Positions 8,634 through 33,749 of a DNA stretch of 64,000 bases are shown here, piece after piece. A model generated the notes under the pieces. It was not told the origin of the DNA. It worked only from the letters and a program-made list of their open reading frames with translations, and did no database searches. A program made the translations under genes and the position numbers. The stretch's first letter is position 1. The number at the start of each line of letters is the position of its first letter. This DNA comes from Candidatus Magasanikiibacteriota bacterium. Lineage in GTDB: Bacteria; Patescibacteriota; Patescibacteriia; Magasanikbacterales; UBA922. Where the stretch lies: contig DMXO01000002.1 in the NCBI GenBank assembly GCA_003482855.1, forward strand, positions 210,635 to 274,634, given 5' to 3'.

Positions 8634-10127
8634 CTATTCCCCTTCCAATATATTCCCCTTATGCTTTTCTCTATACCAACAAAGTGCGACGATCCCTACA
8701 ATTGTCCAATAATAAAACATAAGTGTACGGAATTCAAAATACGGGCCAAAAAAACCAATACACATTACCCCTGCAGTCAGACCAACAAGCCCTTCGGCAA
8801 TGACATGTTCAAACACGTCGTGTACACTCTTGCGAACTACACAGGCCATGCGCATGATAGTAACAAATATACCAAACCACACGATGAGTCCTATCGTACC
8901 AAACTCTCCCCATATGCTCATCCAATTATTATCAATCTGTCCATATAGATTCTGAATGCCAAACGGCATATGCAGACGGTCATACATATCGGTATGCAGT
9001 AGTGCAGCTGCGACACCTCCGCCGTACTGTCCTGGTCCCACGCCAAATAATGGATACTGTGATACGACCAAACGAGGCGTATTGATAATAAAAAATATGC
9101 GCCCATATCCATCATAGCTATCACGCCACGCTTGAAAACTAAAAGCTTCAAACACACGCTCGCCAAATGATTGTGTCGGTTTCTCAGTCACTGATGTGAC
9201 ATTGGTCTTCACTAATGCAAACCCGACCAAATATATGAGTACGATACTTACAAAAATTCCAAGCCCGACTGCCACGCGTCTATCGCGTCGTAATGCAAGT
9301 CCTATGACTGCGATACCTACAAAAGCCGCAATCCAACTCGCGCGTGATGATGTGAGGAAGAGTACCACAAGCCCGGCAAACCCCGCCACCATATACCAAA
9401 TTTTACGAGTAGATTTATCTCGGGTAAAAATCCACGGGAAAAACATCACAAGGCCAAGCGCGACAAAACTCCCGAGTTGATCATATCTTCCCATGGTTGC
9501 AAATACACGGCTTCCTGTTGTCCAAAACTGTTCAAGTCCACCAAGAAGTGCTGCATTGCCTACCATGACCGTACGTGTAGAAAACAAATACTGATCCAGA
9601 TAACCACCTGACACATATTGAATAAGGCCAAATACAATTTCAACCACCATCATGGTACCACCAATCATTACCATGTTTTTCAATATTTCTTTGTCATATT
9701 GGATCCACAGTATGACAAAGAGCATCAATACAAAACGCAGTATCTGTCGCAATCCAAATGCCCATATCCATGGGCTATACCAATTCACAATGAGTGACAA
9801 ACACGCGACAAGGACAAAGCCAATAAACCATGCATTGAGTGGCTGTCGCGGTAATAATTTCTTCTTTCTACGGACAAACGATATCAGACTTCCACCAACC
9901 AAACCATACATGATAACTTCAGGGATATACTTCACATACGCGAAATAATCTATAGGTGTATACATGAGTACTAGACTTTCCAAAGGAAACCAAACAAGGA
10001 GACCATAAATGATCCACTCACTTTTCCTTATGGTAAATGTAAACAAAAAGCCCAAAACAAATATACAACATAACAAAAAAAGACCAATAAAATTGTTCGG
10101 TAAATAAGCTAACATCGTATCAATCAT
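8634..10127 (-). CDS. O-antigen ligase/polymerase (Wzy-like) polytopic membrane protein
   Basis: About 12 TM helices; TSSRASWIAAFVGIAVIGLAL segment resembles Wzy_C/O-antigen ligase signature region. Confidence 0.7.
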   Translation of the reverse strand: MIDTMLAYLPNNFIGLFLLCCIFVLGFLFTFTIRKSEWIIYGLLVWFPLESLVLMYTPIDYFAYVKYIPEVIMYGLVGGSLISFVRRKKKLLPRQPLNAWFIGFVLVACLSLIVNWYSPWIWAFGLRQILRFVLMLFVILWIQYDKEILKNMVMIGGTMMVVEIVFGLIQYVSGGYLDQYLFSTRTVMVGNAALLGGLEQFWTTGSRVFATMGRYDQLGSFVALGLVMFFPWIFTRDKSTRKIWYMVAGFAGLVVLFLTSSRASWIAAFVGIAVIGLALRRDRRVAVGLGIFVSIVLIYLVGFALVKTNVTSVTEKPTQSFGERVFEAFSFQAWRDSYDGYGRIFFIINTPRLVVSQYPLFGVGPGQYGGGVAAALLHTDMYDRLHMPFGIQNLYGQIDNNWMSIWGEFGTIGLIVWFGIFVTIMRMACVVRKSVHDVFEHVIAEGLVGLTAGVMCIGFFGPYFEFRTLMFYYWTIVGIVALCWYREKHKGNILEGE

Positions 10128-10231
10128 AGTACCTATATATTATCATATAGTAAGCATTTTTCAAAGATCAAATCTAGACCAGGCACGAGACACTTATTAA
10201 AACAAAAAACTCCATTTTATAGGAGCCATTT

Positions 10232-10345
10232 TAAATTCACCTAACTGTCCAATTCCCAATTCACCTAATAAAATTCAAATGTATAAATTGAAAATTATAT
10301 TATTGGACATTTTATTAGGTAATTGGAAATTAGGTGAATTAGAAA
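10232..10345. repeat. imperfect inverted repeat (aattcacctaa...ttaggtgaatt arms) at left edge of high-GC island
   Basis: aattcacctaactgtccaattcccaattcacctaataaaat ... attttattaggtaattggaaattaggtgaatt. Confidence 0.5.
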
Positions 10346-10581
10346 TTTTTATAGTAACCCTCAACACCTTCATAAACTTTTATAAAAGTGTAGTTGGGTT
10401 GGGATTCGGCGCGCAGTCGAATCCCTTCCCTCCTTTCCGCCTCCCGAGGGAGACGATGCGCCTGGACAGTGCCGCCAGGCTCGGCGTGGTTCACTCCCCG
10501 TGATCAGCTCTGCGCGAGCCGCGGATCATCATGAACGTGAATGTTTTCGACGCGGCGGCGGAGATAGAGGGTCGAGACGAC

Positions 10582-12573
10582 CTAGTTCTCCGGGGCGCAG
10601 TACACGCCCTCGTCGTTCCAACCGGTGCAGCCCACGGGGCCGGCGGGGTCGGCCACGCACCAGGGCGCCGTGTAGCAGCAGGAGGTGGCCGCCGTCGGGT
10701 CCGTGGTCGGCGTACCGCCGATCCACATCTCCTTCACGGGCGAGGCCATGCACGCCGCGAACAGCGGGTAGGTCGGCGCGGGCGTCGGCGTGTACACGCA
10801 GGTCATGTTGACGCAGGTGTCGATCGTGGCGCCGTTGCCGTCGTCGCAGTTCGCGTCGATCAGGCACTGGACGCAGGTCGCGTCGCCGCCACCGAGGTCC
10901 TGGCAGACGCCGGTCGTGCAGAGCGGCCCGCTGCTGCAGACGCCGGCCGTGCAGGTGTCGGCCGTGCAGGCATCGCCGTCGTCGCACTCGCCGTCGGCGG
11001 TGCAGTCCGGCACGCAGGCCGGGTCCGCCACGCAGTCGGGGTCGAGGCAGTCGGCGAGGCCGTCGGCGTCGTTGTCGAACGTGTCGGAGCAGGCGGCCTC
11101 GGTGTCGCAGTAGCCCGGGGCGCACATGGTGCAGCCCTGGACGTCGCGGCACTCCATGACGGCTCCGAGCGGACCGCACTCCTCCTCGTCAGCCCACAGG
11201 CCGACCTGCGTGCCCGGGATGAGCGTGCAGATGCGGTGCGTGAGGATGGCGGGGCCGGTGGTCTGCTCGACCTCGACGCAGAGCCCCTTGACCGTGACGC
11301 CGGCCTCGATCTCCTGCGCGGTGAACGTGCAGAAGTCGAGCGTGCAGATCGCGTCCGCGGTGCACACGCCGTTGCCGTCGGGCAGCTCGCAGAGCGAGCC
11401 CGTGGCCATCGGGTCGTGGCTGACGGCGCCGTTGGCCGAGTCGCACGCGTCGAGCGTGCAGGGGTTATCGTCGTCGGTGTCGACGTCGATGCCGACGCAG
11501 AGGCCGGCGACCGAGCAGGCGTCCTGCAGGGTGCAGGCGTCGCCGTCGTCGCAGATCAGGCTCGGCTGCGGAACGTGGGTGACGACACCCTCGATGTCGC
11601 ACGCGTCGAGCGTGCAGTCGTTGAGGTCGTCGATGTCCGACTTGGGCTCCGCCTCGCAGAGGCCGACGATGCACATGTCGTTCATGGTGCAGGCGTCGCC
11701 GTCGTCGCAGGCGAGCCCGTCCATGGCCTCGGTGTCGAAGTCGCAGCCCGTGACCGAGTCGCACGTGTCGACCGTGCAGTCGTTCTCGTCGTCGCAGACG
11801 AGCGACTCGGACTCGCACCAGCCCGTGACGAGGTTGCACGTGTTCACCGTGCAGGCGTCCGCGTCGGTGCAGTCCGTGTTCGACTCGCACTCGACGAGCT
11901 CGCGGCAGTAGCCGACCGCGGCCGGGGTGAGCGCCTCGGGGTTGATGGCGCACTCCTGCTCGTGCCCGTTGGGGCTCACGGGACAGGGGTCCACGATCGG
12001 GACGAGGTGGCAGTTGCCATCCACGTCCAGGTGGGTCACCACGGAGAAGCGGCCGACGTACACCTCGAGCTCGCCCGTGGCCGGGTTGTACCAGAGGTCG
12101 CCGTCCTCGGCCGTGTCGCACGACACGAGGTAGCGGGGGCCGATCGGGCCGTAGCAGTCGGAGCCCGTGATGCCCGGCTGGAACGTGAGCGCCGACCGCG
12201 TGGTCATGGTGCCGTCGCCGTTGTCGATGATGCCGAACTCCTCGTTGAGGTTGATCTGCGCCGTGTTGTAGCGCTCCACGATCGCCTCGTACGAGAGGGG
12301 CTCGACGTTGACGCTGGCGGGGTAGGCCGAGCAGCCCGTGTTGCGGTCGACCATCGGGTTCTCCGAGATCGGGCCGCAGTAGGTGTAGCCCTGGGGCGAC
12401 ACCGCGAACACGTGCTGCACGCTGACCTCGTCGGTCACGCTGGCGTACCACCAGGTCGAGTCGACCTGGAGCTGGTTGGTGGGCGCCTCCTTGTCGCCCA
12501 GGTTCGGGTTGTTGGCCTCGCAGCCGATGATGCCGATGACGCCGAGCACGAACAGAACCGTCGCCTTGCGCAT
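10582..12573 (-). CDS. lipoprotein with Cys/Asp-rich tandem repeats (Myxococcus-type cysteine-rich-repeat-like)
   Basis: Lipoprotein signal MRKATVLFVLGVIGIIGC. Repeated units CDDGDACTxxDxC and DxNDCTxDxCD. SD GGGAGG 7 nt upstream of ATG. Confidence 0.65.
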   Translation of the reverse strand: MRKATVLFVLGVIGIIGCEANNPNLGDKEAPTNQLQVDSTWWYASVTDEVSVQHVFAVSPQGYTYCGPISENPMVDRNTGCSAYPASVNVEPLSYEAIVERYNTAQINLNEEFGIIDNGDGTMTTRSALTFQPGITGSDCYGPIGPRYLVSCDTAEDGDLWYNPATGELEVYVGRFSVVTHLDVDGNCHLVPIVDPCPVSPNGHEQECAINPEALTPAAVGYCRELVECESNTDCTDADACTVNTCNLVTGWCESESLVCDDENDCTVDTCDSVTGCDFDTEAMDGLACDDGDACTMNDMCIVGLCEAEPKSDIDDLNDCTLDACDIEGVVTHVPQPSLICDDGDACTLQDACSVAGLCVGIDVDTDDDNPCTLDACDSANGAVSHDPMATGSLCELPDGNGVCTADAICTLDFCTFTAQEIEAGVTVKGLCVEVEQTTGPAILTHRICTLIPGTQVGLWADEEECGPLGAVMECRDVQGCTMCAPGYCDTEAACSDTFDNDADGLADCLDPDCVADPACVPDCTADGECDDGDACTADTCTAGVCSSGPLCTTGVCQDLGGGDATCVQCLIDANCDDGNGATIDTCVNMTCVYTPTPAPTYPLFAACMASPVKEMWIGGTPTTDPTAATSCCYTAPWCVADPAGPVGCTGWNDEGVYCAPEN

Positions 12574-12872
12574 GGGTTAACCTCCCGTGTTGCGCCGTTG
12601 CACGACCTCTCCCTCCCCAGACCTGGGGACAATGCCCTGGCTAAGGGGCGGGAGATAGAAAGCACTAGCCACTGACCTGAACAACTTTGTTATTCACTCA
12701 GTGGCTAGCACTTTCAAAAATACACTATATTGGATTGAAAGGTACTTCACCACCAAACTTATACAGTTTGATGATGACGATGCCTTTCCCCTCGTCCCCA
12801 TTCAGACACGCGCTTGGTAGCGACGCGTCCGAACAGCGGGGACGAGGGAAGGCGGAAGGACATGCGGCTCGA

Positions 12873-14147
12873 TCAGCCGCCGATGACGTCGGACCAGCCG
12901 AACCAGGTGGTGCCGCCGTTCTGCGAGCAGCCGTGGGCCGGATCGGCCTGGCACTCCGTGGCACCCACCGAGGTGGAGCCGCAGGTGACGACCTCGACCC
13001 ACATGCCGCTGGTGCAGCGGGCGAGCGAGGTGTTGCCCGTGGCCACGAAGTCGTAGCAGACCACGGCACCCTCGGTGCACTCGCTGGCCGTGACGGCCGG
13101 GGCGCAGTGCGCGAGGAGGCCCTGGTAGGGCTGGCACACGGTGCCCTCACCGCAGGGGTCGATCTCGACGCACGTGCCGTTGACCATGGTGGCCACGGTG
13201 CAGACGTTGCCGTCGGACTCGACGCACTGCGGGTCGCCCTCGATCACCTCGATGTGGTGGCAGCCGGAGGCCGCGTCGCACGTGTCGAAGGTGTCGTCGT
13301 TGGCGTCGTCGCAGGAGAGCGACGTGTTGGCGCAGTGGCCGTTGACCAGGCACTGGTCGAGCGTGCAGGCGTTGCTGTCGAAGCAGTCCTGGTTGCTCGT
13401 GCAGAGCTGGCGGCAGATGCCGACGTCGCACCACTGCGACTCGGGGTCACAGAGAGGCGCGAACTCGCACTCCTCGGTCTCCCAGTTGCACGTCGGGACG
13501 ACGCACGGGTCGGCCGACTCGCACGAGTTCAGGCACGCCGGCGGGAGCGACATGTGGCCGCAGTGGCCGGTGGCCTCGTCGCAGGAGTCCTGCGTGTTCG
13601 ACATGCCGTCGTCGCAGAACCCCACGTACACGGGGTTCCCGTTGACGTCGCAGAGGTCGGTCGTGCAGAGGCTGCCGTCGTTGGCGTCGCACACGCCGAC
13701 GTACTCCTCGACGCACACGCGCTCGCCGTTGTCGTCCGCCTTGCAGACGGACCGATAGAGCGGGTCGCTCGGGATGGGGCACGTGTAGGCGTAGCGCTTG
13801 ACGTTCCCCGTCATGTTGTCGCACACGTCGACCGTGCAGGGGTTGCCGTCATCGACGTTGGAGCACTCATGCTCCTTGATGACGCAGGCACCGAGCCAGC
13901 ACGCGAACGGCTCACCGCACTGCACCTCGTCGGTCGCGATGCACTCGCCGTTGGCGCACGTGCGGGTCTCGCAGGTGTCGGGATTCTCGGCGTAGCAGTC
14001 GGCCGACGTGAAGCACGTCAGCCCGACGTCGTCGGGGGTCGGCTCGCGCTGGACGGGCGGGGTCGTGGAGTTGTCGTCCTGGTTGAGGTACGGGTTGCCG
14101 TTGCAGGCCGCGAGGAACGCGAACACGAACAGGATGCTCTTCTTCAT
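12873..14147 (-). CDS. lipoprotein with Cys-rich repeats (paralogous architecture to 10582..12573)
   Basis: Lipobox MKKSILFVFAFLAAC. NPCTVDVCD / SLCTTDLCD / NACTLDQC repeats. SD GGAGAG upstream. Confidence 0.65.
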   Translation of the reverse strand: MKKSILFVFAFLAACNGNPYLNQDDNSTTPPVQREPTPDDVGLTCFTSADCYAENPDTCETRTCANGECIATDEVQCGEPFACWLGACVIKEHECSNVDDGNPCTVDVCDNMTGNVKRYAYTCPIPSDPLYRSVCKADDNGERVCVEEYVGVCDANDGSLCTTDLCDVNGNPVYVGFCDDGMSNTQDSCDEATGHCGHMSLPPACLNSCESADPCVVPTCNWETEECEFAPLCDPESQWCDVGICRQLCTSNQDCFDSNACTLDQCLVNGHCANTSLSCDDANDDTFDTCDAASGCHHIEVIEGDPQCVESDGNVCTVATMVNGTCVEIDPCGEGTVCQPYQGLLAHCAPAVTASECTEGAVVCYDFVATGNTSLARCTSGMWVEVVTCGSTSVGATECQADPAHGCSQNGGTTWFGWSDVIGG

Positions 14148-14224
14148 CTGGATCTCTCCGTCGGTTGGCCCGCACTCCGTGAGTCGGGCTCTGGTTCTTG
14201 TTCTCGATCTTCTTGCTTGAAGGA

Positions 14225-14833
14225 TCAGTACGCCCAGTACACTCCGGCGCCGGCTTCCTGGCGGTAGAGCGGGTCATCCCCGCCACCGAACCAGCCCGGC
14301 CCGAAAGTGTAGCGCGCCTCGAACCCGAAGTGTTCCCACGGTTGCCATCGCATGGCTACCGAGGCCACGAACGAGTTCACGACGTCGCTGTTCTGGGTCG
14401 TCGACATGCGGTCGTAGCCGATACCGGCGAGGCACTGGATCTTGTCCAGATGCGTCCGGTACGCGGCCTGGATCAGGCCCGTCATGAAGAGGGTGTCGAC
14501 GCCCTGCTCCATACCACCGGTCTCCACGCGCATGTAGCCGAAGTTCCCGAGGAACTCGAGACCGAAGTGCTGGGTCAGGGAGACCCAGCCCATGATCTGG
14601 AGCTTCGGGACTCCGGTCTGCACCTCGCCCGCGCCGCTGAAGTAACCCAGGAGGGCCACCTTGAAGCGGAACGAGTCGAGCTCGTGCGACATGGCGACCG
14701 ACTCGATCGCCGCGCGCGGGATGCGCGGGTCCGGGACCTGATACACGGTCGGCGCGGGCTGGGCCCGCACCGAGTTGGGGTTGAGGAACAGGACGAGGAA
14801 CAGGACGCTCAGGAACAGGTTCGCGCAACGCAT
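14225..14833 (-). CDS. outer-membrane beta-barrel protein (OmpA-like/OMP_b-brl), start at MRCANLFLSV...
   Basis: Signal peptide MRCANLFLSVLFLVLFLNPNSVRAQ, alternating hydrophobic beta-strand pattern, C-terminal aromatic (…GVYWAY), SD GGAGGGAG upstream. Confidence 0.55.
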   Translation of the reverse strand: MRCANLFLSVLFLVLFLNPNSVRAQPAPTVYQVPDPRIPRAAIESVAMSHELDSFRFKVALLGYFSGAGEVQTGVPKLQIMGWVSLTQHFGLEFLGNFGYMRVETGGMEQGVDTLFMTGLIQAAYRTHLDKIQCLAGIGYDRMSTTQNSDVVNSFVASVAMRWQPWEHFGFEARYTFGPGWFGGGDDPLYRQEAGAGVYWAY

Positions 14834-15059
14834 CGGACTCCCTCCGTCTGGGTGTGTTCGCAACTCGCGACTCTCGAAACGAAAGACTATAAATGTCCTT
14901 CCGCACTCCGACCCACAAGGCCGGAGATTGGAAATGTGTCTCCTAAGCACTCATACATATACAAAAAATACATTGTATATGCATACGTACTTAGGAAAAC
15001 ATTTGTAAAGAACAAAGGAATTCTTACCCTGTACCTTTATGGTACTAGGGTTATTCCCA

Positions 15060-15125
15060 TTTTCTGACAACATCTGATACAGATATTGTCACAAAGCGGG
15101 TGGGGTGGGGTATCGTCGTAAACAG
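15060..15125 (-). terminator. GC-rich hairpin (gcgggtggggtat/ataccccacccgc) downstream of 15201..16691 gene
   Basis: 13-bp stem, about 25-nt loop, followed on minus strand by TTTGTG; sits in AT-rich spacer inside island. Confidence 0.4.
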
Positions 15126-15200
15126 TCTCAAACTCATACCCCACCCGCAGATGTCCGTGGATCCTCCCGGTTCCTCGGACGTCGTGTCAAAATGCCCTGG

Positions 15201-16691
15201 TCACGGGCAGGTGGCGAGCACCCAGTTGCGGGCGTCGGCGCAGCGGCGGGGGTCGCCGTTGACCTGGCACACCATCTGGGTGTACTCGCTCTTGCCGCAC
15301 ACGATCGTGGCGGCGCCGGTCACGTCGCCCGCGAAGCACTCGACCGCCTTCGAGTCCTTCTCGATGTAGGTGCCCGAGCAGGTGCCCGAAGCGGTCGGGG
15401 CGGCGGCGCCACCAGTGGGGGCGGTCGGGGCGACGGGGGCGGTCTCGTGCACGATGCGGGTCGTGTGGCTGGTGCGGGTCACCGTGTTGTGCACGTTGAT
15501 CTCGCCCTCGGCCGTCACGTCGCCCGCCTTGACCTCACCGGCGCGCACGATGCCCGCCTTGACCTCACCGGCCTCGACCGTCTCGATCGTGACCGGGAAG
15601 GTGCGGGGCGCGGCCTCGGCGGCGAGGCGGGCGGCCTCGGCGGCGGCGGCGACCTTCTGGGAGAAAGCCGCGTCGTCACGGGCCGACTTCACGTCGTCGT
15701 TGCTCGGGTTGAGGGCCCAGAGCAGGAAGAACGTGAGGAGCGCCGCGCTCCCGATGATGCCGGCCATGATCCACCACGGCCGGCTCGCCTTCTCCGCGCG
15801 CTTGGCGTCGTCGTCGCGGACGATCGACGGGTTCAGAGCGAGGAGCTCCTTCACCGTCAGGTCGCCGACGATGGCGTTGCCGCCCGAGCGCCCACCGTTG
15901 GTGATGTTGTCGCGGAGGGCGACGAACACGGTGCGCTCCTTGGGCTCGGCGGAGACGACGGGGGCGACGACGGTCTGCGAGGGGCAGAGCTCCTTCATGA
16001 GCCGGAGGCTCGTGAGGAGGTCGTCCTTGCCCGCGGTGCGCGCGCGCTCGAGGTCCTCGGCGCTGATGGCCGGGACCGTCGTCGTGGTGTGCGCGTCGTC
16101 GTGGCCGTGGCCGTGGTGGCCGCCGTCGTTGGTCTCGCGCTGGGCGAGGACGTCGGCGACGCGCCGCTCGATCCCCTTGCGGGTGAGCGTGGTCATCGGC
16201 TTGCCGGTGCCACCGATCAGCACGAGCTGCTCGGGGTCCGACTCGTCGATGCCGAGCACGTGACCGGTGTTGATCGCGTGCTGCTCGGCGCGGGGGTTGA
16301 GCTCCGCCTGCTGGACCTGCGGACCGCCGAAGACCACGTTGGTCGTGCGGTTGCTGGCCAGGAAGGCGAGGAGGTCGCTGAGGCCGGGCTCGCTGGTGCG
16401 GGCCGAGGCCGGGCGGCGGGGCTCGTCGGTGGACGGCTGGCGGCGGGGCTCGGGCTCGCGGCGGGTGTCGGTGCGGGCCGAGGCCGGGCGGCGGGTGTCG
16501 GCGTTGCTGCCGCGGGTCCGCTCGTCCTTGCGCTTCTTGTTGCACCGCTCCTCGGTGTGCCCGGGCTTGCCGCAGTACGCGCAGGTGACCTGCTCGCGCT
16601 CGGTGGCGGGGGCCGCGTCGTCGGTGTGGGCGGCGGCGGTGTCGGTGGTGATCTCGGGGGCCTGGGTGCTGGGGTCGGTCGCGGTCGTCAT
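15201..16691 (-). CDS. membrane protein with N-terminal CCHC zinc knuckle, Arg/Pro-rich linker, single TM and repeat-containing Cys-bearing C-terminal domain
   Basis: CAYCGKPGHTEERC = CX2CX4HX4C. RRPASART duplicated. TM WWIMAGIIGSAALLTFFLLWAL. AGEVKAG x3 tandem. SD GGGAGAGAG upstream. Confidence 0.55.
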   Translation of the reverse strand: MTTATDPSTQAPEITTDTAAAHTDDAAPATEREQVTCAYCGKPGHTEERCNKKRKDERTRGSNADTRRPASARTDTRREPEPRRQPSTDEPRRPASARTSEPGLSDLLAFLASNRTTNVVFGGPQVQQAELNPRAEQHAINTGHVLGIDESDPEQLVLIGGTGKPMTTLTRKGIERRVADVLAQRETNDGGHHGHGHDDAHTTTTVPAISAEDLERARTAGKDDLLTSLRLMKELCPSQTVVAPVVSAEPKERTVFVALRDNITNGGRSGGNAIVGDLTVKELLALNPSIVRDDDAKRAEKASRPWWIMAGIIGSAALLTFFLLWALNPSNDDVKSARDDAAFSQKVAAAAEAARLAAEAAPRTFPVTIETVEAGEVKAGIVRAGEVKAGDVTAEGEINVHNTVTRTSHTTRIVHETAPVAPTAPTGGAAAPTASGTCSGTYIEKDSKAVECFAGDVTGAATIVCGKSEYTQMVCQVNGDPRRCADARNWVLATCP

Positions 16692-17063
16692 GGTACTCTC
16701 TCCCTAGTCCTGCCCCTGGTGGGGGCGCAGTGAAAGCGCGCCCCACGTTGGGGCTTTGGTAACCTACCGTAGGCCTCGCGACACACGTCGCGTGACCATA
16801 TCCGGATACTGTATATGATCATAGAGATCATAGCCTGTACCCGGATATGGTATTTTATTTTTTTGTAGCTATTTTGACACGAATTCTTGTAAAGAGCGAC
16901 ACTCACCCTATTTTAGGATGAACAGAAGATTATATCATATATTGTGTAGTTTGTCAAGAGATAAAGGCTCTATATTTTCCCTCGGGAGAACAGATATTTT
17001 TTGCTTAATATAGAGAAAAAAATGAAAAACAAAAAAGGCTTTATTGAGCCAATTTTGCTATCA

Positions 17064-17145: not shown

Positions 17146-17202
17146 TATCATAATATGCTTCGGACTACAAAAACCATACAAATTATTTTTTTCTTCTGCA
17201 CT

Positions 17203-17265
17203 GCAACTCACCCCCGTCCCCTCTCTTAGTAAGAGAGGGGTGCCCCGAGTACTCGGGGTGGGGTG
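17203..17265. repeat. nested palindromic GC hairpins (aactcacccc…ggggtgagtt enclosing cccctctctt/aagagagggg and ccccgagtactcgggg)
   Basis: Direct reading; perfect 16-bp palindrome ccccgagtactcgggg inside larger inverted repeat. Confidence 0.5.
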
Positions 17266-17284
17266 AGTTACATAAAAAAAATAT

Positions 17285-17322
17285 AACAAAAAGCTCCCCG
17301 ATGATGAGAGCTTTTTTGTACT
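17285..17322 (-). terminator. rho-independent terminator of giant ORF
   Basis: Minus strand: aaaagctctcatcatcggggagctttttgtt immediately after stop. Confidence 0.5.
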
Positions 17323-17329
17323 AACCTGT

Positions 17330-20300
17330 TTATCTATTTCCACCACGTGGTCCACCACCCCGAGGACCGCCGCCTCCACCACCTTTTTTACGCCCGCCTT
17401 GTCCTTGTTGTCCTCTGGCATTATCAGGTCTATTGTCAGGACGCTGACCACGATCCTGTTGTCCAGATCTATTGTCACTACCTTGTTGACCCTGACGTCT
17501 ATCATTCCCTTTCTTTTCTCTTTGTCCCCTATCTCGATTACTTTCATCTGAGCCACCACTCCTATCATTGTTTCTATCTCTACCGCCATTGCGTCGATCT
17601 CTGCCATTTGGTCGTCCACTGTCTCTATTGTTTGATCTGTTTGCAGACCCTTCGCCAGCACCAAGACCGAGATCATCACGAACCTGTTCATCGAGCAACG
17701 AAGCTACATCTATAGACATACGCGTCTGCATATCACGCGCAATATCTCGAGCTTGTGTACGAATAGCATCTGTTGCTTTGCGTAATGATCTATCACCACT
17801 CTCTTGTCCTAATCTTCGCACCAGTTCAAGTGCGGCAAGTTGTTTAGTAGCTTGTTCAAAATCTACCTTGTTTGTCTCTCCACCACGCGCTACATCTGGC
17901 ATCTCAGTACTACCAAACAATAACTCACGCGCCTGATCTCCGTTCAAAGACATCTTACTTACATCAAAAGATAGAGACCCTTTATCTTTTTTCACCCCAA
18001 TAGATCCATACGAACCAAGATTGAAATACGTAGTATCTGGATTTGCTTCAGATGTATCTGAGCCGGTGCCTTCAGCACTACCTTGTGCATGTGCCGTGTC
18101 ATCATCCATTGCTTCTACATCATCTGTCTGCTCTGCTTCATCTTGTGTTTGTGCAGGTGGTTGTGTCTCTACTACAGGAGCAGGAGTAGTACCTGCATCC
18201 ACTCTCGACGTAGAAGTTGAAGTAGTATCTCCCTCTCCAGCGGTAGGAACTTGTTCTCCTTGTCTTGCGCCCTTACGTTCGTACGCAGGACGAGGAGCAT
18301 CCTTCATACCACGAGACACATCTTCGAGTACAGGTCGTTCTCGTGTGGCAAAATATAGAGCTCCTGCTGCGAGCGCACCTCCACCAGCCACAGCATTGAG
18401 CATGGCAAGTCTACCATATGAAACATCAAACGATCGTCCATCTTCCATACCAAGTCTGACACCCTTGCCATCTGGTGTAGGCTCTGCATCTGTAGCACCA
18501 TCTACATGTATATTTGCTTCTTCGCCAGTATTGGTATTACGTACGGGTATATCTGCGCCACTACCAGTCACACGTGGATCTGCCACTGGCTCTACACGCG
18601 GTTCACGCGCGCGAGCTGCTGCCAATTCTTCAAGACGTTGCTGCGCATCTTCAGCCTGTGCTATCTGTGCCAAAGCAAGAGATTTACGATCAAGATCTCC
18701 GGTAGTAGGAGCATACTCATCAGCATCTCCTGTAGTACGCATACCACTGGCAATAAATCTATCTGGACTGCCACCGGTGCTTGTCTCGTTCATACCCATA
18801 TAGACAATTGGTCTACCTGGTTCTGCACGAAGTGGTGTCCTGCCACCTGGTTGATTATCAAACAATTTTACATTATCTGCTAAATAATCATCTCTGTTGG
18901 CATCATGCTGAAGTGCAGAACCGAGGCGTCGGATGAGATCACCACTACGACCACCTGCTGGCTGGTCAATAACCTGCGCTTTGTATTCTGCAAGGAAATC
19001 TGCAAGCGCCTTGTCTGTATCCTGCGGTATACCATCGGGAAATAATTTACCCAAAGATACACGATTGAATCCTTGACTCTGCAAAAATCTCAGTGCCTCG
19101 TCTGTATGCCCTGTCTTCATCATTTCTCCGACCATAGTGAGATCACGTTCGCGTTCAAAATGTAAAATCCATTGTGGATCACGAAACTTTGCCTCGGGGA
19201 ATAATGTATCTTCGCTACCTGTACCATGATCTGTGGCAGACTCAAGTACTGATCGCATAGCATCGGCATTGCCAAGACTCGGGTACGCGGTAACCCACGC
19301 ATCCATTTCTTTTGCTGCCGCAGGTGATAAATGAAATTCTTTTATGATATCGAGACGATCTATATCCCAACGAGCTGACTCGGGCACTGGCGGTACTTCT
19401 ATTGTCTCTGCTCGCGGAGTGGGCTCTCCTGATGGTGGTGCATCTACATCTCTGCCTCCATGTGCACCCACATCTGGTGATGTGTCGTGTGCATGATCTG
19501 CTACTTGAGCGCCTGTACCCGCTGCTGTTCCTGTTTCTTCTGGGATTCTTATGCCTAATTTTTCAAATGCCCATGCTCCAATGTCTTTGCTAAAATAGCC
19601 AAGACCAGCACCAATTACGCCACCGACAACCATACCTTTGAGAGCTCCTGCATGGCGTTTGATGAAGCCACCCTTATCTTTTAATTTATCAATAGTCTGT
19701 TGGCGTTCTGATTTGAGCAAGCTCACATCTGTATCAAGCTCTGCTAAAAGTGCTTCTGCTCCTGCATGTCTCAGGCGTTTGTCGTATGTCTCATATTCAA
19801 TACTGCGCAATACGTTACGTGCGCGCACTCGCAATAGTTCGCTATTGTTCAATAGACCAAGAGACATGGCAACACGAATATCTTTTGCGAGTTTCTGAAG
19901 ACCGGTATCACTTAGGCTTTCAGTCTTCTTGCTATCTATGCCAAGCGTAGACAATGCAAGCTCTGCTTCATCTATACGTCTCTCTACCTCTGTACGCATC
20001 TCTTCTTCACGTGCTCTAATATCTTTCATATTGCCCAGATGCGTTCCCAAATATGCACCCGCAAGTCCAAGCACTGCAGCGCGTACTTCTGGTGCAAAAC
20101 TTGATGCGACACCTATGGCTCCACCAGCAATAGCGCCCATTACTTTTTTGGCTAATTCATTTTGATCAAGTACCTCGCCATCGGCTTTGAATAATGATTG
20201 TACATCGCCACGCTTCAAAGCCATAGCTTTTTGTAATACGCGCATCATGCCAGGATTCTCACGAATGATATCTGCGACTGCGTCTACTGTCTGGCCACTA

Positions 20301-29404: not shown

Positions 29405-29795
29405 GGGGATGACAGGGTTCGATAGGTGGACCTATGTTATCTACTATATGCATGTCGAGGTGGTATACGATCCTCGTAAAACCCGTATACAATTCTCAAG
29501 TGCAAACTTGGTAAGTCGAGTGAAAAACGCAGTAGCGCAAGCTTTCCGCGTCCCAACATTCGCATCTGTAGTGGCCTAATAGGCCTGCTACCATCATTCC
29601 CATGATACTCGGTAATGGATGAATGGTGTCAACCTATCGAGTGTAGGATATATGTGCTTTCTGTCGCATATACTCGAAATAAATACAGGATCAGTTGATT
29701 GCTATTTTGCTGATTTCTAAGCAATCAATAAAACACCAAACCAGCTATACATGTAGATTGTGGTGGTAACCCATCTAGACCCGGGTTCAATTCCC
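29405..29795 (+). ncRNA. ssrA: tmRNA (ssrA)
   Basis: 5' GGGGATGACAGGGTTCGATAGG. 3' T-arm ccggg-ttcaatt-cccgg then acceptor catctcc pairing with 5' ggggatg incl. G3.U wobble. Internal ORF ending in stop inside ggcctaataggcc hairpin. CCA not encoded (..tccaCGA). Confidence 0.7.
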
Positions 29796-29934
29796 GGCAT
29801 CTCCACGAAAAGCGGTGCAACCGCTTTGAGTGACGCGTGATGAGCGAAGCGAATTTTACGCGTCACAACCAATAACTGCTTTTTCAACGGCACCGCCTCG
29901 TGGCGATGCCATAGTAAAATTAGCAAGGAGGATT

Positions 29935-33676: not shown

Positions 33677-33677
33677 G

Positions 33678-33749
33678 TAGCGCCACGGGGAATCGAACCC
33701 CGATTACCAGGATGAAAACCTGATGTCCTAACCATTAGACGATGACGCC
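33678..33749 (-). tRNA. tRNA-Glu (anticodon TTC)
   Basis: Manual fold: acceptor ggcgtca/tggcgct, D-arm gtct-aatggtta-ggac, anticodon stem tcagg/cctgg with loop ttTTCat, T-arm cgggg-ttcgatt-ccccg, discriminator A. Confidence 0.8.

Follow-up and report, generated by a model that had tools for sequence, protein, structure and literature searches.

Is a sharply bounded GC-rich block in an AT-rich bacterial genome an assembly artefact, an import from a GC-rich organism, or a resident locus whose composition is kept as it is? The question is raised by a 64-kb stretch of contig DMXO01000002.1 from a Candidatus Magasanikiibacteriota genome, hereafter the window, all unassigned coordinates below being window positions. 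Against a background of approximately 39% guanine plus cytosine (GC), the segment at roughly 10396-16800, here termed the island, stands out: in 1-kb intervals the GC fraction is 0.62-0.70 for 11001-17000 compared with 0.30-0.49 in the rest of the 64 kb. Recalculated over 100-nt intervals, the profile steps from 0.27 (10300-10399) to 0.68 (10400-10499) on the left, placing the edge near 10396, and from 0.66 (16700-16799) to 0.35 (16800-16899) on the right, in agreement with an initial annotation that had reported a GC anomaly at about 10391-16800. Both boundaries were resolved to approximately 10-20 nt, and the adjoining host genes are unaffected. As that annotation had also proposed, the island holds four minus-strand genes (g1-g4) with strong Shine-Dalgarno (SD) sequences, GGGAGG, GGAGAG, GGAGGGAG and GGGAGAGAG, directly upstream of the four starts. 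The genes are as follows, GC3 being the GC fraction at third codon positions.

10582-12573, minus strand: g1, a 663-aa Dicty_CTDC repeat lipoprotein, GC3 0.98
12873-14147, minus strand: g2, a 424-aa Dicty_CTDC repeat lipoprotein, GC3 0.97
14225-14833, minus strand: g3, a 202-aa secreted beta-rich protein, GC3 0.91
15201-16691, minus strand: g4, a 496-aa bitopic membrane protein, GC3 0.97

We consider it probable that the island is a genuine, chromosomally resident surface cassette of a Magasanikbacteria-like member of the Candidate Phyla Radiation (CPR), and that its high GC content is actively maintained by a fixation bias toward G and C. A comparison of codon usage with the flanks placed the island GC3 of 0.91-0.98 approximately 14-16 standard deviations from that of the host genes, which was 0.336 +/- 0.040 (range 0.275-0.424; 34 open reading frames, ORFs). 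On the island coding strand, third positions are 64% C and 33% G, A/T-ending codons amount to about 3%, and A-ending codons account for 0.2% in g1, g2 and g4 and 0.4% over the four genes; the GC fractions at first and second positions (GC1 and GC2) are also elevated. An adenine-specific loss like that of diversity-generating retroelements was ruled out, since T is depleted at third positions along with A. Long plus-strand ORFs also run through the island, and their GC1 of 0.88-0.96 is an antisense signature, indicating that the minus-strand frames are the true genes. The block is not uniform: two AT-rich spacers, at 12660-12790 (40% GC) and 14880-15095 (37.5% GC), divide it into three GC-rich blocks comprising g1, g2 with g3, and g4. 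The functional unit extends beyond 16800, up to a promoter at 16929-16957.

Two Candidatus Magasanikbacteria metagenome-assembled genomes (MAGs) at NCBI encode proteins that match the flanking Wzy_C protein and DnaE exactly (OGH91740/OGH92270 and HAT03351/HAT03380). As judged from these proteins, the host is a Candidatus Magasanikbacteria (CPR) population of Rifle aquifer groundwater, which bears out the CPR-like host suspected earlier. The initial annotation had entertained an assembly chimera, wherein DNA of a high-GC organism would have been joined to a CPR contig, and many assemblies do end at 10345-10535 or within the island, among them the GenBank MAG contig MFQX01000013.1, which stops at window position 11041 and lacks most of the island. 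These breaks probably reflect Illumina under-coverage of DNA with 70-86% GC. To judge the junctions we relied on independent assembled contigs from different samples and pipelines. Exact-protein look-ups retrieved 20 Rifle groundwater contigs that were 99.99-100% identical to the window, with the exception of L015, a gap-containing scaffold at ~99% identity whose differences are Ns or contig-end errors. The left junction was spanned by Logan SRR2177986 (83 kb), JGI 3300009031 (540 kb), ENA SRR2177953, Logan SRR5855242 and a 617-kb contig carrying HAT03351 and HAT03353, and the right junction by Logan SRR2177986, JGI 3300009031 and Logan SRR5855241. At least five assemblies, from differing samples and assemblers, agree exactly on the junctions; homologous mosaics are present in unrelated samples; and the internal AT-rich spacers raise to at least six the number of false joins that a chimera would require. 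With independent assemblies spanning both junctions, a chimera can be set aside as having negligible probability.

One stretch at 16400-16499 reaches 86% GC. It specifies tandem repeats rich in Arg, Pro, Ala and Ser close to the g4 N-terminus and contains a direct repeat, D17, whose copies are 89% identical and lie 75 nt apart; two of the assemblies (L003 and L005) stop at 16448, within this stretch.

Relatives of the cassette were found in other AT-rich contigs. An exhaustive HMMER search of 1.84 billion representatives for g4 homologues returned only two real relatives, P0130 (41% identity) on contig L026 and P0132 (35%) on contig L027, both of which lie within GC-rich cassettes. L026 carries homologues of g4, g3, g2 and g1 in the same order as the window, with amino acid identities of 42%, 48%, 29% and 30%, respectively, the 29% for the g2 orthologue holding over its full length. 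Its cassette is 60-68% GC, is interrupted by AT-rich spacers where the window has its two, and is set in flanking DNA of 25-36% GC; GC3 is 0.78-0.88 in the cassette compared with 0.24-0.32 in the flank genes, and A/T-ending codons make up 16%. The membrane protein flanking the L026 cassette showed no significant similarity to Wzy. In L027, the cassette comes after an AT-rich homologue of the C-terminus of the giant 2533-aa protein that adjoins the island in the window (tblastn, E 1.3e-12, 29.5% identity over residues 2303-2424). It has a promoter and then, with a spacer after each of the first two, a g4-like gene, a barrel-like gene and a Dicty lipoprotein gene; GC3 is 0.79-0.88 in the cassette versus 0.22 in the AT-rich flank. 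Relatives of g3 are limited to L026 1469-2077 (48%) and, distantly, L027 2511-3272. A word-indexed search recovered g3 only as itself among 5.8 billion proteins and no homologue of g4; scans of genome, metagenome and viral contigs with the g3 alignment returned nothing, the window's own genome evidently being without g3 there.

A partial counterpart lies in L021, from a named CPR MAG ('Azambacteria'), wherein a syntenic run of glycosyltransferase (GT), GHL15, GT, GT and Wzy genes precedes four Dicty_CTDC lipoprotein genes. Identity to the window is 32-35% for GHL15 and one GT and 24% for Wzy; the Dicty lipoprotein genes have GC3 of 0.70-0.85 versus 0.46-0.53, and AT-rich spacers are present here too. 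L147 has a lone Dicty lipoprotein gene (GC3 0.76, neighbours 0.32-0.48) with Wzy_C nearby. Dicty genes linked to murB-secA in Uhrbacteria-like contigs have host-like (L149) or mildly raised (L022) GC3. Two further L021 genes were noted in passing. At 13643-14050, between the GC-rich Dicty genes, lies a 135-aa coiled-coil gene with GC3 of 0.29 (host 0.46-0.53), so that the mosaic runs both ways. At 18877-19392, a 171-aa GC-rich gene encodes a protein with an N-terminal CPTCGH, one transmembrane (TM) helix and a short Cys-containing ectodomain, a g4-like architecture without detectable homology.

The cassettes have more in common than their coding sequences. The non-coding elements of the island are listed below.

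10228-10346, no strand assigned: AT-rich palindromic element immediately beyond the left GC edge, between the 3' end of g1 and the start of wzy, with inverted repeats I3 and I4
10396-10581, minus strand: g1 3' untranslated region (UTR), 64.5% GC, with a hairpin at ~10400-10425 that marks the left GC edge
12574-12872, minus strand: g2-g1 spacer, with the g2 terminator hairpin (~12783-12850), an AT-rich block (12734-12801) and a leader hairpin (~12658-12712)
14834-15200, minus strand: g4-g3 spacer, with the g4 terminator hairpin (~15095-15150), an AT-rich block (15051-15103) and a leader hairpin (14941-14996)
16692-16965, minus strand: g4 promoter and ~230-nt leader, comprising the promoter, an AT-rich conserved leader, a hairpin and then a non-conserved GC-rich leader with the SD

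Conserved non-coding blocks are 71-85% identical between cassettes whose proteins are at 30-48%. The AT-rich block at 12734-12801 matches L026 3497-3564 at 84% over 69 nt, within which a 31-mer has a single mismatch, and 15051-15103 matches L026 at 78% over 54 nt. The segment 16838-16958 matches L027 680-797 at 71% over 124 nt, a block that includes the promoter, TTGACA-17-TGnTATAAT at 16957-16929 with 12/12 positions matched. On the left, 10311-10350 is 85% identical over 41 nt to an internal spacer of the L027 cassette. The AT-rich nested palindromes TTCACCTAAT...ATTAGGTGAA occur both at 10228-10346 of the window and at L027 2300-2420, and are possibly a shared operator or terminator element.

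There are three transcription units: g4; g3 with g2, where 77 nt without an AT-rich spacer separate the g3 stop from the downstream g2 start; and g1. Each has a long near-perfect leader hairpin with a free energy (dG) of -34 to -38 kcal/mol, and ends in a GC-rich 3' hairpin. The leader hairpins were calculated at -38.2 kcal/mol (z -10.0) for g1, -33.8 (z -10.3) for the unit of g3 and -34.3 (z -8.1) for g4, where a hairpin of 15 bp or more at 16795-16851 sits at the right GC boundary; the 3' hairpins of g1 and g2 reached -17.8 (z -3.3) and -53.8 (z -7.0). Across leader hairpins overall, z was -5.5 to -10. Equivalents are in place in L026 and L027, partly with different sequences: L026 has counterparts of the g2 terminator and g1 leader hairpins and, at the place of 14941-14996, a hairpin of different sequence, and the L027 counterpart of the g4 leader hairpin was at -37.9 kcal/mol (z -9.8). 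A search of the leaders against Rfam gave no family, only chance sub-threshold matches; the conserved 31-mer had no match across the metagenome contigs scanned; and the hairpin pattern CCATATCCG..CGGATATGG was too unspecific in genome contigs, yielding only chance matches in unrelated taxa. An integron array or a cluster of attC sites lacking an integrase (CALIN) was rejected, there being no integrase, no RYYYAAC/GTTRRRY attC cores in the palindromes when inspected by eye, and separate promoters and leaders for the units.

The island also differs from its host in translation signals. All four island genes carry an SD, compared with 2/33 host ORFs having a GGAG/GAGG core at the start (5/33 if any start within the first 40 codons is allowed), an enrichment with a hypergeometric p of ~2e-4 by our own calculation; the cassette genes of L026 and L027 likewise carry SDs. 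The scarcity of such cores suggests that initiation in this Magasanikbacterium may be SD-independent. The regions upstream of the host ORFs are AT-rich.

We then compared synonymous sites between the window and L026. At residues conserved in both, fourfold sites agreed at 0.34-0.51, against 0.32-0.47 expected from composition, and agreement no better than composition indicates that synonymous sites are saturated. Third positions in the surrounding genes are 66-76% A/T, compared with 3% (window) to 16% (L026) in the cassettes. Passive amelioration therefore cannot explain the GC3 of the cassettes, given saturated sites together with so few A/T-ending codons. It is this combination, a cassette conserved across lineages with saturated synonymous divergence, from which we infer that a fixation bias would maintain the composition.

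The same data bear on a single ancient horizontal gene transfer (HGT), the other half of the earlier proposal, under which the high GC would be the passive residue of a slowly ameliorating block. L026, L027 and L021, with GC3 of 0.70-0.88, do fall below the 0.91-0.98 of the window, as if at differing stages. However, with fourfold sites saturated the A/T-ending codons have reached just 3% to 16%, and the A3 of the window, 0.4%, is at or beyond that of any plausible donor, which makes such a residue very unlikely.

A different possibility is that unsampled high-GC, SD-using, Myxococcota-like diderms have donated the genes recently and independently, into a hotspot, leaving GC3 unameliorated. 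Glycan loci are classic HGT hotspots, and the island is embedded in a Wzy/Wzz-type surface-glycan locus; in its codon usage and strong SDs it resembles high-GC bacteria and not its host, and the lipoproteins and possible beta-barrel fit a diderm. Yet the same gene order recurs with 71-85% identical AT-rich spacer blocks in three AT-rich genomes with syntenic flanks, so that the donors would need the same four genes, spacers of 35-40% GC, and insertion beside the same host genes. Neither g3 nor g4 had a homologue in any high-GC genome searched, among 1.84-5.8 billion proteins. As the initial annotation had stated, the borders lack an integrase or tRNA: by Pfam the flanks are Wzy_C and the 2533-aa protein, the sole tRNA in the 64 kb lies at 33677-33749, none is within 16 kb of the island, and no flanking direct repeats were found. 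Where the contexts of the best repeat-level matches to g1 and g2 were checked, they were Myxococcota-like contigs of uniformly 60-70% GC with GC3 of 0.66-0.91, below the 0.98 of the window. Furthermore, the G/C-ending codons preferred for Leu, Arg, Ser and Gly (CTC, CGC, TCG and GGC) are common to island and host genes, whereas a Myxococcota-like contig prefers CTG, CGG and TCC instead. Recent import from a high-GC diderm, the kind of donor first proposed, is consequently unlikely; the Myxococcota-like part of that proposal survives in another form, in that the best repeat matches are Myxococcota-like and the Dicty_CTDC genes may ultimately derive from a transfer long ago out of a Myxococcota-like lineage.

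Several observations nevertheless weigh against a resident cassette with maintained composition. The best repeat matches of g1 and g2 are in high-GC Myxococcota-like contigs, and GC-rich donors may be unsampled; the GC3 excess of CPR Dicty genes grades from 0 to +0.63, like an amelioration series; and strong SDs within an SD-poor genome are in themselves a foreign-looking trait. Only three or four related cassettes are available, on short metagenomic contigs except for L021 and L147, and the contigs of two of them have no taxonomic assignment. Non-conserved UTRs are ~57-65% GC compared with a GC3 of 0.98, a level imperfectly matched by either a purely regional bias or a simple mRNA-GC model. 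The host ribosomal protein gene rplJ has no GC3 shift (0.385), and the trend for conserved spacer sequence to be AT-rich was not significant overall (rho -0.26, p 0.11).

If the composition is indeed maintained, the leading guess, which we offer tentatively, is that the GC pressure comes from selection at the mRNA level. Long-lived bacterial mRNAs combine a 5' stem-loop, a strong SD and a 3' hairpin and avoid AU-rich stretches, as exemplified by ompA and the stabilising SD (STAB-SD) of Bacillus thuringiensis cry. Each unit of the island has a conserved AT-rich regulatory region, a long leader hairpin, a strong SD and a 3' hairpin rich in GC. A body of high GC content, stem-loops at the 5' end, strong SDs and 3' hairpins are all features known to stabilise mRNA, and the GC-rich zone coincides with the transcribed units. 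In an organism otherwise without SDs, translation of a structured GC-rich mRNA would require one. The ompA and cry mRNAs share with each unit the leader stem-loop, strong SD and stable 3' hairpin; their ORFs are not recoded throughout to G/C-ending codons.

GC-biased gene conversion or mismatch repair, tied to frequent exchange of surface alleles and anchored on the conserved AT-rich spacers and flanks, might provide the bias instead. The effect appears at the wzy-linked locus (window, L021 and L147) and not at the murB-secA-linked Dicty genes (L022 and L149); GC1 and GC2 are raised too; and the strongly diverged coding DNA is bordered by conserved blocks, an arrangement shared with antigen-cassette loci. 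In Borrelia, the vls locus is an earlier case of maintained GC-richness linked to gene conversion (PMC11499132). Conversely, the boundaries fall within ~10-20 nt with the neighbouring host genes unaffected, GC is much lower in unconstrained UTRs than at third positions, the 64 kb hold no silent copies, there are no G-quadruplex (G4) motifs and no strong G skew of the coding strand, and the Rifle population is clonal across samples, with no recombination seen. As the source of the pressure behind a maintained composition, biased conversion is possible and somewhat doubtful; taken as an explanation standing on its own, it is improbable.

A third proposal for what holds the composition is that the cassette is kept in a 'foreign dialect' of G/C-ending codons, strong SDs, consensus sigma-70 promoters, lipoproteins and a beta-barrel-like protein, for expression in, or match to, the high-GC diderm host cell of the CPR bacterium itself. 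A monoderm CPR cell should not need such lipoproteins or a beta-barrel-like protein, and the translation system of the recipient would hold the composition by selection. If true, the island would be a bacterial analogue of Agrobacterium T-DNA or effector-gene delivery; we regard this as highly improbable.

Among known systems, the vls locus (vlsE and its silent cassettes) of Borrelia burgdorferi sensu lato is the closest documented analogue. It has 49.1% G+C in a genome of 28.6%, in all strains and despite divergence, which its authors attribute to strong selection to maintain composition (PMC11499132). Both are surface-lipoprotein loci far above the GC of an AT-rich genome, and the contrast of the island is the greater (65-73% versus 39% GC; GC3 0.98 versus 0.34). 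However, vls has a G-rich coding-strand skew, G-runs and G4 motifs, a promoterless array of silent cassettes and segmental gene conversion, whereas the island has C-rich third positions and four unrelated genes with their own promoters; a vls-like antigenic variation locus was rejected because the island lacks G4 motifs and the 64 kb contain no silent copies. The island resembles an acquired genomic island or O-antigen locus in its sharp boundaries, Wzy/Wzz setting, surface products and foreign-looking codons and SDs, and departs from one in lacking an integrase, tRNA or direct repeats, in being conserved as a cassette in diverged AT-rich genomes and in having no donor for g3 and g4. The Dicty_CTDC lipoproteins of Myxococcota share CTDC-type repeats and an N-terminal lipobox with g1 and g2, giving hundreds of matches at E 1e-40 to 1e-91. 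The likeness is confined to the repeats (30-46% identity over 22-70% of the query), none of these matches covers the N- and C-terminal regions unique to g1, and the Myxococcota genes lie in uniformly GC-rich genomes.

The island is probably a compositionally deviant, selectively maintained surface-gene locus, and a literature search found no report of GC-rich cassettes in CPR. Atypical GC is routinely taken for recent HGT or contamination, and composition is a standard criterion for cleaning CPR bins; the block described here lies 30 GC points off its genome and is native, conserved and apparently held there. A gene-specific composition kept against genome-wide AT pressure (GC3 0.98 versus 0.34) is a tractable natural case, which could separate mRNA selection from biased gene conversion. 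That the island genes are SD-led and the host genes SD-less suggests that translation may be initiated in two ways within a single CPR cell. Gene callers trained on an AT-rich genome yield antisense or wrong-frame ORFs and assemblies break at the boundary, so that candidate surface or attachment proteins are absent from the protein sets of long contigs and MAGs, and from the proteomic searches derived from them, in a lineage that is episymbiotic.

Public gene calls illustrate the point. On long contigs and the HAT MAG they comprise antisense or wrong-frame ORFs at 10531-12675 (plus strand), 12687-14267 (plus), 15105-16733 (plus) and 14274-14906 (minus), with lengths of 714 aa (HAT03353.1), 498/526 aa, 542 aa and 210 aa. 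The true island proteins occur only where the island was assembled as short contigs, and an exact look-up of g1 came back empty because the public long-contig calls are antisense.

We next considered the predicted products, which most plausibly form a co-regulated surface or attachment module. The initial annotation was right to call two of them lipoproteins with Cys/Asp-rich repeats: both g1 and g2 have a signal peptide ending in the lipobox [LVI][ASTVI][GAS]C, as IIGC (residues 15-18, Cys18) in g1, which has 63 Cys and 75 Asp in disulfide-rich repeats, and as LAAC (residues 12-15, Cys15) in g2, which has 49 Cys. TIGR02232 had been named as a model to search with; NCBIfam, which includes that model, gave no family at E<=0.1 for any of the four island proteins, and Pfam instead identified Dicty_CTDC (PF00526; gathering threshold 27 bits), at 55.9 bits over four stretches in g1 (E 3.6e-15) and 41.6 bits in g2 (E 1.1e-10). 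The N-terminal 230 aa of g1 were unmatched in the top 120 homologues. Neither PHROGs nor PADLOC gave any match.

For g3, the designation 'OmpA-like outer-membrane beta-barrel' is a guess and stays unproven. The protein has a signal peptide, ~8 amphipathic (alternating) beta segments and a C-terminal YWAY, its L026 orthologue ending in YWAITP and its L027 relative in FWFW; it gave no Pfam match even at E<=10 and no NCBIfam match, and its family profile had no match in the PDB. Single-sequence AlphaFold2 models had a predicted local distance difference test (pLDDT) score of 38 for g3 and 41 for g4, and both were unusable.

The description of g4 as a CCHC-zinc-knuckle membrane protein held in part. 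A CX2CX4HX4C motif, CAYCGKPGHTEERC, is present near the N-terminus at residues 37-50, followed by one TM helix at ~305-330 and a predicted Cys-containing extracellular domain at the C-terminus. The motif scored 12.2 bits against zf-CCHC (PF00098), where the cut-off is 20.8 bits (E 0.2), matched only sub-threshold nucleocapsid zinc knuckles in the PDB (E 0.14-0.9), and is missing from both homologues, P0130 and P0132. The knuckle segment CAYCGKPGHTEERCNKKRKDERTRG (residues 37-61; 16582-16543 region) resembles the segment CLYCGKPGHDVASCYAKQRDERTSG of P0133, a eukaryotic retroelement Gag-like protein, with 46% identity over 47 aa (E 5.6e-7).

The locus around the island runs in the order DUF11 protein, two GT4s, GHL15/FG-GAP, radical SAM, Wzy_C, island, 2533-aa protein and Wzz, and the two genes that adjoin the island have host-type composition.

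8634-10127, minus strand: Wzy_C O-antigen ligase/polymerase-like membrane protein, GC3 0.39, host-type; identical to OGH91740 and HAT03351
17330-24931, minus strand: giant 2533-aa protein, GC3 0.29, host-type codon usage

The giant protein gene has a high GC1 (0.62), its product gave weak PP2C-like and KIF21A-like matches, and a complex GC-rich hairpin terminator lies beside it at ~17180-17320. Elsewhere the window holds a tRNA-Glu, an L10 leader and a transfer-messenger RNA at 29405-29808 with an unusual predicted tag, AVAQAFRVPTFASVVA.

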